Of a stretch of DNA of 62,372 bases, positions 5,843 to 26,904 are shown piece by piece (position 1 is the first letter of the stretch; each line of letters opens with the position of its first letter). Source of the stretch: an uncultured Candidatus Saccharibacteria bacterium (GTDB lineage: Bacteria > Patescibacteriota > Doudnabacteria > UBA920); the NCBI GenBank assembly GCA_964484145.1, contig CAZAED010000001.1:20790-83161 (forward strand). Direction: 5' to 3'. The notes below the pieces were generated by a model, which worked only from the letters and a program-made list of their open reading frames with translations, searched no databases and was not told the origin of the DNA. A program made the position numbers and the translations under genes.

Positions 5843-6397
5843 TTATTTTCCCAATAATTTTAACGCTTGTTTTATTTGCTCCCCTGTCTTTTGTGATGAA
5901 TCTAATTTGTTAATAATGCTTCTAACCTCATTTTGTTTATAACCTAAAGCAATAAGCGCATCGAATACCTCCGAGCCTCCCCCTGTTACTCGTAACCCAT
6001 CACCCGTCACTTTTCCTTTCAGTTCAACTATTATTTTCTCCGCGGTTTTTGTTCCAACGCCAGAAATGCGCGTAAAAATCCCTGCATCTTGGTTTGCAAT
6101 TGCGCTCTTTACCGCATCTACTCTTGCTGATGATAGTATAGCTAAAGCCACTTTCGGTCCTACCCCAGAAACTGTAATAAGCATTTCAAAAAACTGCAAA
6201 GTGTTAAAGTCAGGAAGTCCAAACAAACTTTGTCCGTCTTCGGATACTTTGTGATATATGTATAATTTTATTTCATCACCAACTCTATTTTCCAAAACTT
6301 CCGGCGTTACAAAAACCTTATATCCCACACCTTGATTTTCGAGGATTATAAAATTAGTTGCCTTCTCTAAAATTTTTCCTTGTAAATACGCAATCAT
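5843..6397 (-). CDS. ruvA: Holliday junction branch migration complex subunit RuvA
   Basis: MIAYLQGKI...GVGYKVFV N-terminus, HhH region (ISGVGPKVALAILS, ISGVGTKTAEKII) and a C-terminal domain III-like tail. Confidence 0.9.
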   Translation of the reverse strand: MIAYLQGKILEKATNFIILENQGVGYKVFVTPEVLENRVGDEIKLYIYHKVSEDGQSLFGLPDFNTLQFFEMLITVSGVGPKVALAILSSARVDAVKSAIANQDAGIFTRISGVGTKTAEKIIVELKGKVTGDGLRVTGGGSEVFDALIALGYKQNEVRSIINKLDSSQKTGEQIKQALKLLGK

Positions 6398-6526
6398 AAG
6401 TACGGAATTTTAATTAATACACTACATATGCCTACAAAAATTCTGTAGTTTTTTATTATGGATTTTTATTCTTAATTCATAATTCTTACCTCTTCACTTA
6501 TTTCATTCTACCACCTCCCAAAGCCA

Positions 6527-6555
6527 TTGACAAAAAGCATAAAAAAGTGTAGATT
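6527..6555 (+). promoter_or_regulatory. Sigma70-type promoter for the GC-rich non-coding region
   Basis: TTGACA (6527-6532), exact 17-nt spacer, TAGATT (6550-6555). Confidence 0.5.
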
Positions 6556-6561
6556 TTCACT

Positions 6562-7200
6562 ATCCTCCGAGAGCGGGCAGTCGGGAGAATAAACCCGTAA
6601 AGGTCATGCCAAAAGACCCTGCCCGTTATATAAGGTAATCAATCGGCGAGGATCGTTCCCCTCTAGGGGATAAGATCGCCCTAAAAGGCTGTAGAGCGAA
6701 AGCTCGCCTCGCCACATAGTCTTCTCCCGCCCCGCAGCATACGGCTCACATCAAAGCCTCGTCGTTTAAAGCCGAAAAGATGGTCGGGAAGTACCCGCCG
6801 CGGCTAAAAGTTATGCCGGAGTAAACGTCCTCAGGGAGAGAGGCGTTGCAGGGGTTTGGCAGACCCCGCTCTGGCTACCAGTTTCAGGCAACGGCTTTCC
6901 TCACGGAAAGCTCTCCTCGCAAGGTCGTTGCCTGAATAAGGCAGATGGGTTGGTTCGTGACCGCTTACTACGCATTTCACGTACGTTGCGGCCAACCCGT
7001 CTGTCCAAATTAAGGAGGAAAAAATTTTTTGCCGCTATGCGGCCATACAAGTGCTGCCATTTGGCAGTTAAACGGTTGAGCTTTTGCTCCCGGCTTGTAA
7101 ACAATATTTCCCTGTCGCTACCACCAAGCGACCAGGAGGGGCTCGGTGACCACCAAAGCCCCTCCTGCCTCCTCTTTTCCCACTTTATGTGGCTTTTTTT
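6562..7200 (+). ncRNA. Candidate large structured ncRNA (~640 nt), class not recognised
   Basis: GC-rich block in an AT-rich spacer with no ORF over 89 aa. Many long perfect helices: 6574-6580/6619-6625, 6645-6651/6707-6713, gagc-GAAA-gctc 6694-6705, 6885-6893/6926-6934, 6894-6900/6905-6911, 6942-6953/6992-7003. It ends with terminal hairpin 7133-7167 plus a T-run at about 7190-7200. Confidence 0.55.
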
Positions 7201-7245
7201 TATGGTGAAAAAATGTTAAAATAAAAATTGACGTTAAAAGGCAAA

Positions 7246-7290
7246 TATAAGTCGTATAAGACTTATAAGGCCTATCCGTCCTATTTGTCT
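7246..7290 (+). repeat. Degenerate 9-mer array (tataagtcg x5)
   Basis: tataagtcg tataagact tataaggcc tatccgtcc tatttgtct. It ends 11 nt before the pseudo-start at 7302. Confidence 0.85.
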
Positions 7291-7301
7291 AATTTTTCTT
7301 T

Positions 7302-7427
7302 ATGCAATTTAAACTTAAATCTAAATTCCAATCCGCCGTCGCTAAAGCTATGGCGGACCTAGTGCCATTACAAAATTACATAGCCATCGATCTGTATTTA
7401 TATGATAAAATTTGTATTAAAATCTAA
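7302..7427 (+). pseudogene. Decayed duplicate of the uvrB 5' end (short out-of-frame ORF)
   Basis: MQFKLKSKFQSA... (7302-) compared with the real N-terminus MIKFVLKSKFRPA (7402-). About 20 of 30 nt are identical over the aligned codons. The ORF runs into uvrB in another frame. Confidence 0.35.
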
Positions 7428-9474
7428 GTTCCGGCCTGCTGGCGACCAACCCAAAGCAATTGAGGGTCTTTTAAAGTCGCTTAAAGCCAAAAACCGCTTT
7501 CAAACTCTACTCGGAGTTACTGGCAGCGGCAAGACTTTTACTATGGCCAATGTTATAGAGCGTATACAAAAACCGACATTAATCATCAGCCACAACAAAA
7601 CTTTAGCTGCCCAGCTTGCCGCAGAATTTCAAGAATTTTTTCCGGACAACGCGGTTCACTACTTTGTAAGTTACTACGACTACTACCAACCGGAAGCCTA
7701 CATCCCCCGCTCTGACACTTATATTGAGAAGGATACTCAAATAAATGAAGAGATCGATCGTTTAAGAAACGCTGCCACCCAAAGCCTGCTTTCGCGCAAA
7801 GATGTCCTAATTGTGGCGTCTGTTTCCTGTATTTACGGCCTTGGTGACCCGGCTAATTATTTAGACTTGGCAATGGACTTTAAAAAAGGAGGGAATTATA
7901 AACGGGATAAGCTACTTAGAAGACTAACAGATTTACAATACCACCGAAACGACACAGAACTAGTACGCGGCACTTACAGAGTGCAGGGCGACGTTGTAGA
8001 AATTATACTTTCTTCTGAAGACACTATTATTCGAATGGATTTTTTTGGGGACACATTAGAAAAAATAGAAAGGCTGGACGCGATTTCAGGCCACAAAATT
8101 GAGCAGATGGATGAATTCACAATTTTTCCAGCCAAACATTTTGTTACGCCCGAAGAAAAATTAAAAGACGCAACAGAAAACATTCGTAAAGAAATGTTAG
8201 ACCGAGTTAAATTTTTTAAGTCCCAAAACAAACTTATAGAAGCTCAAAGAATAGAACAACGTACCAACTTTGACCTAGAAATGTTAAGCAACACAGGCTT
8301 TGTTAGCGGTATTGAAAACTACTCCAGGCAAATAGAAGGCAGAGAACCAGGTTCTGCGCCGTCTACTTTAATTGATTACTTCCCTGACGACTTTTTGTTA
8401 TTCGTTGATGAATCCCACCAAACTATACCCCAAATTGGCGCTATGTACGAAGGAGACAAGTCTAGAAAAACTAACTTGGTTGACTACGGCTTTAGGCTTC
8501 CTTCTGCCTTAGATAACCGCCCACTTAAATTTGATGAGTTCGAAAAGAAAATAAACCAAGCTGTGTTTGTCTCCGCAACACCGGCGCCTTTTGAAATACT
8601 AGCCAGTCTTAATCAGGCAGTTCCAAAAAAATCAGAGGTCTTTGAAAGTAAGAATTCGGATCATTCGGATACATTCGTAAGTTCGGATCGGAACACTATT
8701 GTTGAACAACTTATTCGCCCAACAGGCCTACTCGACCCTACCATAGAAATAAAGCCCATAAAAAACCAGGTTGATGATTTAATAGAGCGCATACATGAAC
8801 GTATAAAAAAACATCAACGCGTACTGGTTGCCACGCTAACTAAGCGTATGGCCGAGGAGCTAACCGAGTACTTAAAAGAAGACGGGGTAAAAGTACAGTA
8901 TTTGCACAGCGATGTAGATACATTTGAACGACTTGAAATACTGCGCGACCTTAGACTTGGCGTTTTTGACGTCTTAGTTGGCATTAACTTACTTAGAGAA
9001 GGCCTAGACTTACCGGAAGTTTCTTTAGTTGCAATACTTGATGCGGACAAAGAAGGCTTTTTGCGTTCTGAAACTTTCTTTATGCAAATGATGGGCCGTG
9101 CTGCCAGACACTTAGAAGGCCACGTGGTTATGTATGCCGACAGAATAACAGGTAGTATGCAAAGAGGCATAGACGAAACAACTCGCAGAAGAAAAATCCA
9201 GGAAGCTTACAACAAAAAACATGGCATAACTCCCAAAGGCATACAAAAAGCCATAGCCGACTCGCGTATGGCCGGCAGTAAGGTAGATATTTTTGACGAA
9301 GCTAACGAAAAGCGCGACCCAAGCCGTATGGACAAAGACGAACTAAAATTCTACCTCCACGAACTAGAAGAACAAATGGACTTTGCCGCAAAGAATTTGG
9401 AGTTCGAGGTCGCCGCCAAACTTAGAGACCGCATTGAAGAAATTAAAACTTTGAAAAAATTAAACAAGAAGTAA
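7402..9474 (+). CDS. uvrB: Excinuclease ABC subunit B
   Basis: GDQPKAI, GVTGSGKTFTMA, VSYYDYYQPEAY, RPTGLLDP, helicase motifs and a C-terminal UVR domain (EFEVAAKLRDRIEEIK). Confidence 0.95.
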   Translation: MIKFVLKSKFRPAGDQPKAIEGLLKSLKAKNRFQTLLGVTGSGKTFTMANVIERIQKPTLIISHNKTLAAQLAAEFQEFFPDNAVHYFVSYYDYYQPEAYIPRSDTYIEKDTQINEEIDRLRNAATQSLLSRKDVLIVASVSCIYGLGDPANYLDLAMDFKKGGNYKRDKLLRRLTDLQYHRNDTELVRGTYRVQGDVVEIILSSEDTIIRMDFFGDTLEKIERLDAISGHKIEQMDEFTIFPAKHFVTPEEKLKDATENIRKEMLDRVKFFKSQNKLIEAQRIEQRTNFDLEMLSNTGFVSGIENYSRQIEGREPGSAPSTLIDYFPDDFLLFVDESHQTIPQIGAMYEGDKSRKTNLVDYGFRLPSALDNRPLKFDEFEKKINQAVFVSATPAPFEILASLNQAVPKKSEVFESKNSDHSDTFVSSDRNTIVEQLIRPTGLLDPTIEIKPIKNQVDDLIERIHERIKKHQRVLVATLTKRMAEELTEYLKEDGVKVQYLHSDVDTFERLEILRDLRLGVFDVLVGINLLREGLDLPEVSLVAILDADKEGFLRSETFFMQMMGRAARHLEGHVVMYADRITGSMQRGIDETTRRRKIQEAYNKKHGITPKGIQKAIADSRMAGSKVDIFDEANEKRDPSRMDKDELKFYLHELEEQMDFAAKNLEFEVAAKLRDRIEEIKTLKKLNKK
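8654..8692. repeat. Word array (ttcgga/ttcgta) inside a lineage-specific uvrB insertion
   Basis: attcgga tcattcgga tacattcgta agttcgga tcgga, translated as NSDHSDTFVSSDR. Confidence 0.85.
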
Positions 9475-9481
9475 TCTGGCA

Positions 9482-10203
9482 GATGACGGTCATTCTCCCT
9501 CAAGGAGAATGACCGTCATCCTCCTTATCAATCAGCAAATGCTCTAAGTCCTTTCTTTCACGAATTTTGATATAACTTTCTTCCACAAAACGTTCATACT
9601 CCTGAGCGTTTTTAAATTGACCCAAAATATTCTCTTTGCTGCATAAGGTTCCCGCTCTCTTACCAATAAAATCTAAATAACTGCTATATGGCCATCCGTT
9701 CAAGCCTATTACTAAACCAGCCACTTTCGGATTTTGGTGAATGTAAGCTGAGAGCCATAACAAATAAGAATCTGAATCTACTTTAACCGCACGAAATTTA
9801 TGTTCAAACAAAGCACCCACCCTATCATGCGTCTTATTAAAATATTTTGAATATCCGACACAAACTTTTTTTAATAATTCTGTTAGCGGTAGCTGGCTAT
9901 TTTGCTTTATTAGCAAATGAAAATGATTAGGCATTAAGCAATAACAAATCATACTAAAAGCACCGTCCGGCAACGCTTGCCTGCGGAAACGTGCAGGCTT
10001 ACTTTGATTATACCGCCTAATTAATTCAGGAAATAAATTTTCCCTTAAACGAAATAAAAAAACCTTATAATCTTCCTCATCTAAAAAAATGTCTTGCTTG
10101 CCATTACCCCGGTTATAAATATGATAATAACCGTCCTGTCCAAATTGTTTATAATCACGATTATTCATAAAACCCCCATTAGGGAGAATGACGGTCATTC
10201 TCC
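9482..10203 (-). mobile_element. REPtron-like unit: Y1 (RayT/IS200-like) transposase bracketed by matching palindromes
   Basis: Perfect 17-bp-stem hairpin at 9482-9520 and a 10-bp-arm palindrome at 10183-10203. The 16-mer atgacggtcattctcc occurs at both ends in direct orientation (9484-9498, 10188-10203). Confidence 0.65.
9500..10198 (-). CDS. REP-associated tyrosine transposase (RayT) / IS200-like Y1 transposase
   Basis: YHIYNRGN, the HUH motif in LMPNHFHLLIK, and the catalytic-Tyr region LSAYIHQNP. An alternative ATG at 10168 (MNNRDYKQ) lies just past the hairpin. Confidence 0.8.
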   Translation of the reverse strand: MTVILPNGGFMNNRDYKQFGQDGYYHIYNRGNGKQDIFLDEEDYKVFLFRLRENLFPELIRRYNQSKPARFRRQALPDGAFSMICYCLMPNHFHLLIKQNSQLPLTELLKKVCVGYSKYFNKTHDRVGALFEHKFRAVKVDSDSYLLWLSAYIHQNPKVAGLVIGLNGWPYSSYLDFIGKRAGTLCSKENILGQFKNAQEYERFVEESYIKIRERKDLEHLLIDKEDDGHSP

Positions 10204-14052: not shown

Positions 14053-14691
14053 ATGAAAGCGATTGCAATTATCGCCATGATGATAGGTGTACTTGGCGCC
14101 CAAGATTCACCAGAAGCCGAAGGACTTTTGGAAGCCACGGCTTCCAAGGATTTCAATTACGGCTTAGTATTTGTACCGGTCAAATCGGGTTTCGCATTCG
14201 ATACCCAGTTTTACTGGACACCTAATGCGGGATCTCAAGTTTTACTGGGCGGCGCCTACGTATGGAAACCCAAAAAACTGGGCGGCCTTAAACTAATACC
14301 GGGAATCTATTACGTAACTGAAGGATGCGAGCATGAAGCTCGCCCAGCCGGCTGTCATGACGTAGCTCTTGGACTCGGCTGGGAATGGCGCAACGTGCGT
14401 TGGGGTAGCCGCGGTTTTGTGGCTCAAACCCTCCGTAAAACCGAACGCCGCTTCGGTTTCGCCGATCCAGTTCAGGCTTACCGCCGCCTCTTTGACGGCA
14501 AAGTGGAGTTCGGTTTCGCCTACACAGGCGAATCTGCCGAGCATCATCTTTTCGGTAAAGGCGGCCTTTCTGTCAGGCGTTACTTCGGTCAGGAAAAAGA
14601 AGAAGGGATTGGACGCAACTATGTTGAGTTCACATTCCTAACGGGCCACAAAGGTCCGTCATACCGCACAACGCTAGGCCGAAGCTTTTGA
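14053..14691 (+). CDS. GC-rich secreted protein, possibly beta-barrel/OMP-like (C-terminal Phe)
   Basis: RBS aaggagaggg plus ATG. Signal peptide MKAIAIIAMMIGVLGAQD. Alternating-hydrophobic segments; the protein ends ...TTLGRSF. Codon usage (ggc, gcc, cgc, ttc) differs from neighbours. Confidence 0.6.
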   Translation: MKAIAIIAMMIGVLGAQDSPEAEGLLEATASKDFNYGLVFVPVKSGFAFDTQFYWTPNAGSQVLLGGAYVWKPKKLGGLKLIPGIYYVTEGCEHEARPAGCHDVALGLGWEWRNVRWGSRGFVAQTLRKTERRFGFADPVQAYRRLFDGKVEFGFAYTGESAEHHLFGKGGLSVRRYFGQEKEEGIGRNYVEFTFLTGHKGPSYRTTLGRSF

Positions 14692-14833
14692 CAGCGTCAT
14701 CATATCAACACGGTGGCGAGCCGGATTACACCCCGCGCTCGCCTACCACACTTGTTTTTTTTATATAAATCTGGTAAAATCACTTTACCTTTAAGTCAAT
14801 CAGGTGTCGCTGGTTGATGCGGGGACAATTTTA

Positions 14834-25878: not shown

Positions 25879-25907
25879 ATTATAGCACAAACAAATATTT
25901 TTGGCAA
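25879..25907 (-). promoter_or_regulatory. Consensus promoter of the giant gene
   Basis: Minus strand: TTGCCA (25902-25907), 17-nt spacer, TATAAT (25879-25884). Leader of about 200 nt. Confidence 0.55.
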
Positions 25908-25923
25908 ATTTTTTCTTTGCCAA

Positions 25924-25976
25924 TAAAAAAGCGCAGGGTGATGTCTGATCGGTAGATCGAGACAAAGCACCCTGCG
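25924..25976 (-). terminator. Terminator after the GC-rich gene 26029..26904
   Basis: cgcagggtg / caccctgcg stem (25932-25940, 25968-25976), with a T-run on the minus strand (25924-25930). Confidence 0.6.
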
Positions 25977-26028
25977 GCCTAACTGCTGTTAGCGGACGGA
26001 CACGTGTCCGCCGCCAAAAGAGAGATAG

Positions 26029-26904
26029 TTAGCGAGGAGGTGAGATGATCGGCACGGCCACTGCATTACTGTTGCGGGGCAGTGCCGGCTGCTCGAACAT
26101 TACAGTGCTGGTGTACGGATCGCCCAGCACCGTCAGCGTTATATAGGCGCGCGCCCTCCTCTCGTGGAAATTGGAAGGCACTCGAACAACATTGCCCGTG
26201 GGCGTCAACTCCATAGGCGATATCTGAGCAACAGTTCCGCCGTTGACGACTTCCTGACGCACCAGCGCAGTCCCGCTTGGGAACATCCCTCGAATCTCGA
26301 GAGTGTCCCCCACAAGCCTAACTTCCCGGATGCTACCGTCCCACCTGTCTTCGGATCCGTCCGAGTTGAGTTTCAGTGAAATGAAGTTTTGCTGGATTAT
26401 GTTGTGTATGCCACTCGGCGTTACAGACCAAACAATCACCTCGACGAAATACACCCCGTCGGGATCTGCGTTGGAAAACTCCCGCGAAAACACATTGAGT
26501 TTGTCGTTCCGTCCAAAACCACGATAGAAATATCCGAACATGGCGCCCTCTGCGTCGAAGTACTCAATTCGCGACCCATCTGGGTAACGATTCGCGCTTG
26601 GCAGCATAACACGAGCCGAGATGTGATAAGTTCCTTCGAGCAAATCAGAAGGAAGAAGCACCAAATTGAGACGGTCTTTGTTGCTGAAATACTGCCCGTT
26701 GGTTCGAACGAAGAACAAAGGCCATCTCTGGGACTGTTGGACGGATGCGGCACGTTGCTCGCTTTTCTGCAGCTGCAACAGCGGGGACACTCCGCCGAAT
26801 TGATTAAAAGCCTGCTCGGCAGTGATGCGAGGCATTTCCTGAGCGAAAGCGATGCTAGTCGCGGTGAACGCGAGCGATAAAACCAAGTTGATCAAATGGG
26901 ACAT
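26029..26904 (-). CDS. GC-rich secreted hypothetical protein
   Basis: RBS aggagaggg plus ATG. Signal peptide MSHLINLVLSLAFTATSIAFAQE. GC visibly near 55-60%, with shadow ORFs in all frames. Confidence 0.6.
   Translation of the reverse strand: MSHLINLVLSLAFTATSIAFAQEMPRITAEQAFNQFGGVSPLLQLQKSEQRAASVQQSQRWPLFFVRTNGQYFSNKDRLNLVLLPSDLLEGTYHISARVMLPSANRYPDGSRIEYFDAEGAMFGYFYRGFGRNDKLNVFSREFSNADPDGVYFVEVIVWSVTPSGIHNIIQQNFISLKLNSDGSEDRWDGSIREVRLVGDTLEIRGMFPSGTALVRQEVVNGGTVAQISPMELTPTGNVVRVPSNFHERRARAYITLTVLGDPYTSTVMFEQPALPRNSNAVAVPIISPPR

Follow-up and report, generated by a model that had tools for sequence, protein, structure and literature searches.

What is encoded in the long, GC-rich spacer that separates the divergent genes ruvA and uvrB in an uncultured Candidatus Saccharibacteria bacterium of the Doudnabacteria lineage? 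The spacer (1004 nucleotides, nt) lies in a 62,372-nt stretch of DNA (hereafter the window; GenBank assembly GCA_964484145.1, contig CAZAED010000001.1, positions 20,790 to 83,161), where ruvA (5843-6397) is encoded on the minus strand and uvrB (7402-9474) on the plus strand. Analysis of this region indicates that 6556-7201 is probably a separate gene for a structured non-coding RNA (ncRNA) of an uncatalogued family, and sequence comparison appears to place this family, so far, only in one clade within Candidatus Doudnabacteria and always in the divergent ruvA/uvrB spacer. We conclude that the ncRNA gene is genuine, unclassified and modular; its parts keep their shape and are swapped wholesale between very close relatives. 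A first-pass annotation of the window had proposed a large ncRNA of unrecognised class at this position, a proposal that is supported here, as none of the refutation tests named with it that were run refuted it. What was described as a single class of ~640 nt stands as a probable structured ncRNA, although it is better described as a composite in which a cloverleaf-like NCCA domain lies between a variable 5' domain and a 3' module.

The composition of the locus sets the RNA apart from its surroundings. The overall GC content of the window is 0.40; in the ruvA-uvrB spacer, counted in 200-nt segments, it is 0.54-0.58 across 6600-6999, compared to AT-rich edges of 0.285-0.335 upstream (6300-6599) and 0.32 downstream (7200-7399), in agreement with the earlier description of a GC-rich block in low-GC flanks. 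The longest open reading frame (ORF) in any frame spans 89 amino acids (aa; 6950-7219, plus strand), which is the limit that had been given for this region. On the plus strand, 6556-7201 folds with a minimum free energy of -266 kcal/mol versus -211 +/- 6.9 kcal/mol for dinucleotide shuffles (z = -8.0), and the minus-strand fold of the same block gives z = -5.9. The promoter claimed earlier, TTGACA-17-TAGATT, was recovered by a promoter scan (Table 1). It faces the divergent ruvA promoter TTGTCA-17-TAGAAT (6533-6505, minus strand), and the -35 hexamers of the two overlap (TTGACA at 6527-6532, TTGTCA at 6533-6528). Furthermore, TTGACAAAA and, upstream of it, ATTCTACCA vary little or not at all in L001, L002, L003, L106 and L114 (handles of this kind denote loci of relatives). 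The conserved ATTCTACCA corresponds to the TG-extended -10 (TAGAAT) of ruvA.

The transcript probably ends at 7168-7201, judging from the arrangement of bases there. The T-run that had been placed after the second terminal hairpin is present as U8 (7194-7201), though not directly, as a CU-rich tail and a small hairpin intervene. A simple terminator scan called no terminator in the region; canonical terminators with a perfect stem and U8 are found on the same strand in L001, L003, L114 and L002, and the ACCAC(A/U)UUAUGUGGCUUUUUUU of the tail is conserved in L002 and L106. The two hairpins ahead of the tail (7114-7132 and 7133-7167) share ACCACCAA, consistent with the identical loop noticed earlier. 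The first has no clear counterpart in relatives, which carry a different hairpin with a UUCAUUUCCCUAC loop. The GACCACC loop of the second is kept in the window, L001, L003, L114/L107/L108 and L116/L117 on stems that are wholly different and all fully paired. G-U pairs bear on the strand: they occur in the 12-base-pair (bp) helix 6942-6953/6992-7003 and at the base of the UGAG...CUCG hairpin in seven of eight sequences, and since each would be an A-C mismatch on the opposite strand, they fit the plus strand only. A pairing check thereby agrees with the earlier statement that the single wobble of the 12-bp helix is G-U on the plus strand alone. Taken as a predicted stand-alone, terminated ncRNA gene, the locus has a promoter, a terminator, no protein-coding ORF and compensatory structure.

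Relatives were collected by a UvrB-anchored scan of GTDB genomes, which gave ~53 loci with a UvrB identity of at least 66%, most of them carrying the label Doudnabacteria or Patescibacteria, and 12 further contigs were reached via RuvA homologues. The closest public relatives are metagenome-assembled genomes labelled Candidatus Doudnabacteria, several of the nearest being deposited as uncultured Candidatus Saccharibacteria. In most loci carrying both genes, ruvA and uvrB are divergent neighbours separated by 21-1323 nt, and the order femAB-like gene, ruvA, spacer, uvrB is shared by L001-L003 and L106-L117. Conservation in relatives had been suggested as a check on the RNA, and it was borne out: syntenic counterparts exist, with the same module order and with compensatory changes. 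The order common to relatives is 5' hairpin, four-way junction, GC helix, NCCA domain, AAGGAGG-like motif, three-way junction and terminal hairpin.

The compensatory changes are clearest in the three-way junction, in which five of the five pairs of the closing helix have changed on both sides with 0 mismatches in eight sequences (manual register; variants ACAAG/CUUGU, GCGAG/CUCGC, GGAGU/ACUCC, ACGAG/CUCGU and GUGAG/CUCAC). The second hairpin of the junction keeps UGAG/CUCG, as stem positions 1-4 hardly vary and position 5 changes on both sides. The cloverleaf-like domain likewise has a covarying closing helix (GCCGGAG/CUCUGGC, GCCGAAGAG/CUCUUCGGC, GCCGGAG/CUCCGGC). The near-identical pairs L114/L108, L003/L115 and L001/L109 differ by compensatory substitutions and by local replacement of whole hairpins or loops; from L114 to L108, for example, GAGACA/UGUCUC becomes GAGUC/GACUC and GCUGUGC/GCACAGC becomes GCUGCGC/GCGCAGC. 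A covariance model of the three-way junction (R1), built from L106, L114 and L108 only, with the window excluded, matches L001, L109 and L110 at E = 0.03-0.04. In the window it matches exactly 7047-7104 on the plus strand (14.6 bits, E = 1.2 over 0.94 Mb), which is the predicted place and strand. Independent folds of the window, L001, L109, L003 and L115 give the same four-way junction topology, a closing helix with three hairpins, from unrelated hairpin sequences, and in the same five sequences the cloverleaf-like domain has an 8-10-bp closing helix, two to three arms and an unpaired NCCA.

The body of the RNA does not follow the genes around it. In the closest genomes, L106 (RuvA 97% identical) and L002 (RuvA 93%), the promoter and the region after the terminator are shared and the bodies are unalignable. 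Between the window and L106, ruvA and uvrB are 88% identical in nt and the flanking spacer is identical in 83.5-85% of aligned columns, versus 69.8% for the body, against 67.1% in a shuffled control. The lengths of the bodies are nevertheless similar, at 612 (window), 616 (L106), 626 (L002) and 613 nt (L001). By sequence, only ~100 nt (6747-6844) are recovered by blastn and nhmmer in L001, L003, L109, L110 and L115, at 78-91% identity. The core-bearing allele is found in the window and in the more distant L001 (RuvA 88%), L003 (83%) and L114 (87%), whereas the nearer L106 and L002 lack it; the type of allele thus fails to track the flanks.

Helices were judged by exact complementarity and by mean pair probability in the full-length fold, and the features of the RNA are collected in Table 1. 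All helices listed in the first-pass annotation are complementary exactly as it had them: 7 bp for 6574-6580/6619-6625, 6645-6651/6707-6713 and 6894-6900/6905-6911, 8 bp for 6582-6589/6722-6729, 9 bp for 6885-6893/6926-6934, and 12 bp with one G-U for 6942-6953/6992-7003. Pair probabilities are 0.74-1.00 except in two cases. The helix 6574-6580/6619-6625 folds alone and is disfavoured in the full-length fold (0.20), and the long-range pair 6582-6589/6722-6729, proposed earlier as a possibility, is complementary yet unsupported (0.12).

Table 1. Modules of the predicted ruvA-uvrB spacer RNA, with the promoter and the probable transcript end (window coordinates)
Feature	Position	Strand	Basis
RNA promoter TTGACA-17-TAGATT	6527-6555	+	Promoter scan, 10/12 positions match
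5' hairpin GCGGGCAG/CUGCCCG enclosing two small hairpins	6573-6626	+	Forms when folded alone
Four-way junction, closing helix GGCGAGG/CCUCGCC and 3 hairpins (third GAGC-GAAA-GCUC, 6694-6705)	6645-6713	+	Pair probability 0.82-0.93
Best-conserved stretch: CACAUCAAA, GC helix 6756-6765/6794-6803, loop GCCGAAAAGAUGGUCGGGAAGUA	6747-6811	+	blastn/nhmmer
Cloverleaf-like domain: closing helix GCCGGAGU/GCUCUGGC, two arms, then single-stranded UACCA	6813-6880	+	Folds
Hairpin of 9 + 7 bp	6885-6934	+	Perfect complementarity, pair probability 0.76-0.99; alignment gap versus L001, L003
12-bp helix with one G-U, 38-nt loop, then UCCA	6942-7007	+	Pair probability 1.00; alignment gap versus L001, L003
Shine-Dalgarno (SD)-like motif UUAAGGAGGAA, start of 3' module	7010-7020	+	Motif recurrence in spacers
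Three-way junction: ACAAG/CUUGU closing helix, hairpins 7053-7068 and UUGAGC-UUUU-GCUC (7076-7089), then AAAC	7047-7098	+	Manual register
Hairpin GUCGCU-ACCACCA-AGCGAC	7114-7132	+	Pair probability 0.74
Terminal 11-bp hairpin with GACCACC in loop	7133-7167	+	Motif comparison among relatives
CU-rich tail CCUCCUCUUUUCCC, hairpin CCAC-UUUAU-GUGG (7180-7192), U8 (7194-7201); probable transcript end	7168-7201	+	Read from sequence

Several modules have recognisable equivalents elsewhere. The hairpin after the promoter corresponds to CCAGGGCAAG/CUUGCCCUGG in L001, CCAGGGUG/CACCCUGG in L003 and CCGGGCCGAU/AUCGGCCCGG in L114/L108. The 10-bp GC helix follows CACAUCAGA; it has a GAAA cap in the short alleles L114/L108, where it reads GCCGCGGCGG/CCGCCGCGGC, and a 28-nt conserved loop in the others. 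The second arm of the cloverleaf-like domain, GGGGU-UUGGCAG-ACCCC, has 5 bp and a 7-nt loop. The ~120 nt that hold the hairpins 6885-7003 have no counterpart in the core-sharing type-A relatives L001 and L003. Right after AAGGAGG there is a perfect A6U6 palindrome (7019-7030), also found in L002 (2447-2459) despite otherwise different RNA bodies, and the palindrome is followed by a small hairpin at 7031-7043. A kissing interaction of the core loop GAUGGUC with the GACCA loop was considered and dropped, as the core loop reads GAUGGCC in L001 although the partner loop is unchanged there, and is missing altogether from L114.

The motif that opens the 3' module links the RNA to tRNA genes. U(U/A)AA(A/G)GAGG(A/G)A recurs in 19 examined ruvA-uvrB spacers, 11 of which have CCA a few bases upstream. 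The motif comes directly after tRNA-Gln and tRNA-Lys in L020 and after other tRNAs in L018 and L025, and it precedes a tRNA in L116/L117 and L023; in L001/L109 a tRNA lies downstream of the RNA. In loci such as L020, L018 and L025, where tRNA genes abut the motif, tRNAs thus occupy the position that the 5' domain, ending in the cloverleaf-like NCCA element, has in the window's clade. In L013, L026, L052 and L017, the motif is as little as 128-234 nt away from the ruvA start, with a 5' domain that is short or absent. The RNA of L002 contains a pseudo-tRNA-Pro (2482-2558, ending in CCA; Rfam tRNA, 22.7 bits), and a second copy of its first 13 nt stands at the 5' end of this RNA (GGGGGAUUAGCAC versus GGGGGAUGAGCAU). 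Among the tRNA genes in relatives' spacers are a tRNA-Lys in L001 (2803-2878), the tRNA-Gln and tRNA-Lys of L020 (2637-2800) and a tRNA-Ala in L025 (2569-2644), and the whole window contains no tRNA gene. Neither RF00005 nor ARAGORN calls a tRNA cloverleaf, with its D-, anticodon- and T-arms, in the window, which shows the general shape only, namely a closing helix, two to three arms and NCCA. The arms depart from tRNA rules, with no D-arm in the window, L001 or L109 and no U33 or T-loop consensus.

These observations suggest a mechanism in which the primary transcript is probably processed at its tRNA-like junction. RNase P would cut 5' of the cloverleaf-like NCCA domain (6813-6880), and tRNA 3'-end processing would follow after CCA. 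Genuine tRNAs that occupy this position in other Doudnabacteria would be freed in the same way. The cut would free an accessory, rapidly exchanged, ornate 5' RNA and a 3' RNA of ~190 nt (7010-7201). The latter, comprising the SD-like motif, the three-way junction and the GACCACC terminal hairpin, would be the more widely kept, functional core. More speculatively, this 3' RNA may act in trans through its single-stranded AAGGAGG and its C-rich GACCACC loop, which would either pair to a partner RNA or bind a protein. In addition, GC-rich structured RNAs of 260-335 nt (up to ~500 nt) are located upstream of uvrB in the more distant Doudnabacteria loci L005, L007, L009, L013, L017, L026 and L052. 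These RNAs start at UUAAAGAGGAAUU and have strong terminators, loops that are often CCUCC-rich and no Rfam match; they are candidate, not established, counterparts of the 3' module of the window.

It is conceivable, although we hold it only tentatively and would not expect it to be the final answer, that the RNA represents a new class of large ornate RNA of the Candidate Phyla Radiation (CPR), maintained as a pool of deeply diverged alleles that recombination exchanges among genomes otherwise nearly identical, under balancing or diversifying selection on an RNA, with domains released by tRNA-type processing at the NCCA element. If so, the RNA might serve in self/non-self discrimination, in defence or in host interaction.

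A number of points weigh against a separate ncRNA gene of the kind described here. Only ~5 independent lineages stand behind the structural comparison. The structural alignments and pair tables were made manually because MAFFT misplaced modules and helices, so the choice of helices may be biased. The match of the R1 model in the window is weak (E = 1.2), with linear scaling to the 1-kb spacer giving ~0.003. The ruvA-uvrB spacer of L008, L012 and L046 is only 21-138 nt long, which is too short for such an RNA and indicates that in some Doudnabacteria it is either dispensable or encoded elsewhere. The window copy itself looks partly degenerate, as three G-to-U changes leave three U-C mismatches in a GC helix that does not vary elsewhere, and the window has no clear hairpin before CACAUCAAA. 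The cloverleaf-like domain is unrecognised by tRNA models (RF00005, ARAGORN). RNAfold often pairs the SD-like motif with CU-rich tracts further downstream or with the terminator tail; this pairing was rejected after the best complementary run proved no longer than in shuffles for most sequences. Finally, plus-strand transcription, the promoter, the RNA ends and the processing are inferred from sequence.

Some of these same points are expected if the spacer is instead the functionless scar of a former tRNA cluster, in which decayed tRNAs and remnants of inserted elements are still transcribed from an old tRNA promoter and the hypervariability reflects a lack of constraint. Such a scar would fit the tRNA genes or pseudo-tRNAs found in the same spacer of many relatives, the pseudo-tRNA-Pro of L002 with its duplicated first 13 nt, the unalignable bodies of the closest relatives, the window's mismatches in the one invariant helix and the relatives without room for the RNA. 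Unconstrained DNA in a 40% GC genome should, however, drift to low GC and lose its helices, whereas all alleles stay GC-rich, four of them at 612-626 nt, and keep the module order with compensatory differences. In addition, the GACCACC loop is kept despite a fully replaced stem, and the tRNA model is empty in the body of the window RNA even at E = 10; a scar is thus unlikely. We regard as still less probable a cis-acting leader, of an attenuator or riboswitch-like kind, controlling read-through into uvrB, or into the tRNA in L001/L109. The relatives end in strong terminators (12-bp perfect stems and U8) with no visible antiterminator, and L001/L109 have a further 450 nt and a tRNA between the RNA and uvrB. 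Moreover, 640 nt is far above known leader sizes, the body is swapped between strains when uvrB is not, and the SD-like motif has no ORF to control. A TG-extended -10, TGTTAAAAT (7214-7222), can also be read by eye between the terminator and uvrB, although the promoter scan did not call it. What a leader would explain is the shared orientation with uvrB, ~200 nt downstream, the last hairpin of the window, which has no direct U-run and may terminate leakily, and the three-way junction beside an SD-like sequence, which resembles many riboswitch aptamers.

It is very improbable that the RNA is a highly divergent housekeeping RNA, such as transfer-messenger RNA (tmRNA), RNase P RNA or 6S RNA, missed by the models in a CPR lineage. 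An own promoter and terminator, a GC-rich sequence in an AT-rich genome, a conserved position and a tRNA-like NCCA element would all suit such an RNA, but tmRNA, RNase P, 6S and signal recognition particle (SRP) RNA have no Rfam match at E = 10 in the 1-kb spacer or in relatives. These RNAs would not be replaced wholesale between genomes with RuvA 97% identical, nor should their genes be missing from related spacers, though encoding elsewhere would be allowed. A tmRNA was suggested by GGGGGAU...AUCCCCUACCA in L002, where ARAGORN at -ps80 calls a 509-nt 'tmRNA' (2050-2558, 24-residue tag EHTKPTIGIPVPSVFIRPLRIRRA, 'tag not identified'), and it was rejected on account of the implausible tag and because nothing comparable is found in the window, on which ARAGORN is silent even at -ps80; the duplicated 5' end of the pseudo-tRNA-Pro explains the call in L002. 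A tmRNA tag reading frame with a resume codon and a hydrophobic (typically ...AA) degradation tag at its end is not found in the window. A permuted tmRNA, with the 5' domain as acceptor piece and the 3' module as coding piece, was likewise set aside, as the NCCA stem closes locally without involving the two ends of the RNA, and real tRNAs can replace it. GAGGAA superficially recalls a P4 strand of RNase P RNA (GAGGAAAGUCC ... ACAGAA-CCGGCUUA); the 3' P4 strand was not seen by eye, there is too little sequence after the motif, and at E <= 10 RF00010 and RF00011 match neither the window spacer nor 14 relatives' loci, leading to rejection of this identity. Least credible of all is a decayed or unusual protein gene, whether a small protein after AAGGAGG or a frameshifted foreign gene. 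In its favour are the 89-aa ORF, the strong SD-like motif followed within 4-10 nt by UUG, GUG or CUG in the window, L001, L002, L003 and L106, the LAS / SFPY / DHP shared in one frame by L003 and L114, and three differences between the cores of the window and L001 that are spaced 3 nt apart and synonymous in one frame. A Pfam search (E <= 1) of the eight stop-to-stop translations of at least 40 aa from the region gave no match in any frame, however, and comparison of relatives shows no AUG start and no consistent start codon or peptide downstream of the SD-like motif. The ORF after the motif has a length of 13-16 aa in the window, L001 and L109 versus at least 46 aa in L003, in a frame that differs between the window and L003. 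GACCACC in L001 is kept past a stop codon, conservation of the core crosses a 2-nt indel and a stop, and what looks like shared 'peptide motifs' falls on loop motifs of the RNA, on stems that covary. With start, stop and frame not kept across relatives and no Pfam match, a small ORF after the motif and a core peptide were both rejected, and for the pseudogene named earlier as a refuting outcome there is likewise neither a Pfam domain nor a conserved peptide frame.

A structured ncRNA gene thus remains the preferred reading, and it was compared with the known families. A search of the whole window with Rfam 15 gave nothing at gathering scores, and at E <= 10 the 1-kb spacer gave chance-level matches only; the confident match that was to overturn an unrecognised class did not appear, and the reported lack of RNase P, tmRNA, SRP and group II hallmarks is in line with the absence of such matches at E <= 10. 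In 22 relatives' loci, Rfam gave nothing beyond genuine tRNAs and chance-level matches, and ARAGORN, with default settings and with -ps80 alike, called neither a tRNA nor a tmRNA in the window. The covariance models of GOLLD, ROOL, OLE, raiA and HEARO have no match at gathering scores or at E <= 10. A group I or II intron core (P7/P3/P8, or domain V with its 2-nt bulge and GNRA loop) has no Rfam match, and the GAAA-capped GC helix of L114 has no bulge, the other alleles having a 28-nt insertion instead. No similarity to the region was found in 50,697 phage records or in PLSDB plasmids. A scan of IMG/VR for the three-way-junction hairpin gave 47 matches, all attributable to chance and without hairpin extension, and a scan for the CACATCAGAGCC core gave three matches, which were not inspected. 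A metagenome scan for the core GGNCGGGAAGTANCCGCCGCGG gave 25 matches, all of them in high-GC sequence unrelated to the locus. No part of the region longer than 16 nt has a second copy within the window, and the multiple copies that characterise repetitive extragenic palindromes (REP) or miniature inverted-repeat transposable elements (MITE) are not found there. A literature search on structured RNAs of CPR or Doudnabacteria returned nothing relevant.

The closest kind of RNA is that of the large ornate bacterial RNAs, above all GOLLD (RF01998) and ROOL (RF03087), and the window RNA is a member of neither. It resembles both in being ~600 nt long, multi-junction, GC-rich and stand-alone, with few invariant nucleotides and a function that is not known. 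In GOLLD too, the 3' half is the better conserved one and the 5' half varies. GOLLD and ROOL typically adjoin or are co-transcribed with tRNA genes (PMC5737381). A tRNA adjacency is also seen here, as tRNA genes abut the 3' module in L020, L018, L025 and L116/L117. Unlike GOLLD and ROOL, the window RNA has no phage or prophage context and lies between housekeeping genes at one fixed chromosomal site in a CPR lineage. We know of no body replacement between near-identical flanks for either family. A CCA-ending cloverleaf-like element within a longer non-coding transcript, at a domain boundary, also recalls mascRNA (3' end of MALAT1/MEN-beta) and bacterial RNAs matured from tRNA operons; the resemblance to mascRNA-type 3'-end processing is an analogy only, as cleavage here is a prediction and the only mascRNA-menRNA match is at chance level and on the opposite strand (14.5 bits, E = 9.5). 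Similarities to tmRNA (ssrA, RF00023) include the CCA tRNA-like end, a GC-rich multi-helix body, an own promoter and terminator and fast-evolving peripheral helices. In contrast to tmRNA, the acceptor-like stem is a local one that does not join the two ends of the RNA, a tag frame and a T-loop consensus are missing, and the RNA runs ~320 nt past the first CCA. The base-pairing small RNAs of Firmicutes with C-rich loops, of the RsaE/RoxS and RNAIII type, serve as a lead only. Like them, the RNA has C-rich hairpin loops (GACCACC), and the short allele L114 has the CU-rich loops CUCUUCCCUC, CUUUCUCCCU and UUCAUUUCCCU; unlike them, it is 3-5 times larger, and the window allele has no CU-rich loops.

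CPR/Patescibacteria genomes are ~1 Mb in size and have very little spare DNA, and to our knowledge almost nothing is known about their non-coding RNAs. A multi-junction RNA of 340-650 nt at one chromosomal site would extend, by a new class, the short list of large bacterial RNAs without an assigned function (GOLLD, ROOL, OLE and raiA). Its most unusual trait is a body that defies alignment between genomes with 88% identity in the flanking genes, with size and module order kept. If allele exchange lies behind the replacement of the body, the RNA would offer a rare example of diversifying evolution in a structured RNA rather than in a protein. The embedded tRNA-like NCCA domain offers a processing model that is directly testable.

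Other observations concern the surroundings of the RNA. Degenerate short repeats (TATAAG / CCTATCCGTCC / CCTATTTGTC) are located between the RNA terminator and uvrB (7245-7290); they include a 22-nt imperfect palindrome (7246-7267) and are much expanded in L002 (2720-2870). In the adjacent 7302-7362, ATGCAATTTAAACTTAAATCTAAATTCCAATCCGCC reads like a decayed duplicate of the 5' coding end of uvrB at 7402-7450 (FKLKSKFQSA versus FVLKSKFRPA). A small hairpin, CCGCC-GTCGCTAAAGCTAT-GGCGG (7336-7359), comes after ATGCAATTTAAACTTAAATCTAAATTCCAATCCGCC and is also present in L014 and L002, and in L003 it carries the compensatory change CCACC...GGTGG. Directly after uvrB, a 232-aa ORF (9500-10198, minus strand) contains YHIYNRGN...NHFHLL motifs of the kind typical of IS200/RAYT-like Y1 transposases. 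The window has three other GC islands (0.52-0.59) at 151-750, 14151-14750 and 25901-26850; these overlap long ORFs (121-804, minus; 14053-14691, plus; 26029-26904, minus) and so may be foreign or unusual genes.

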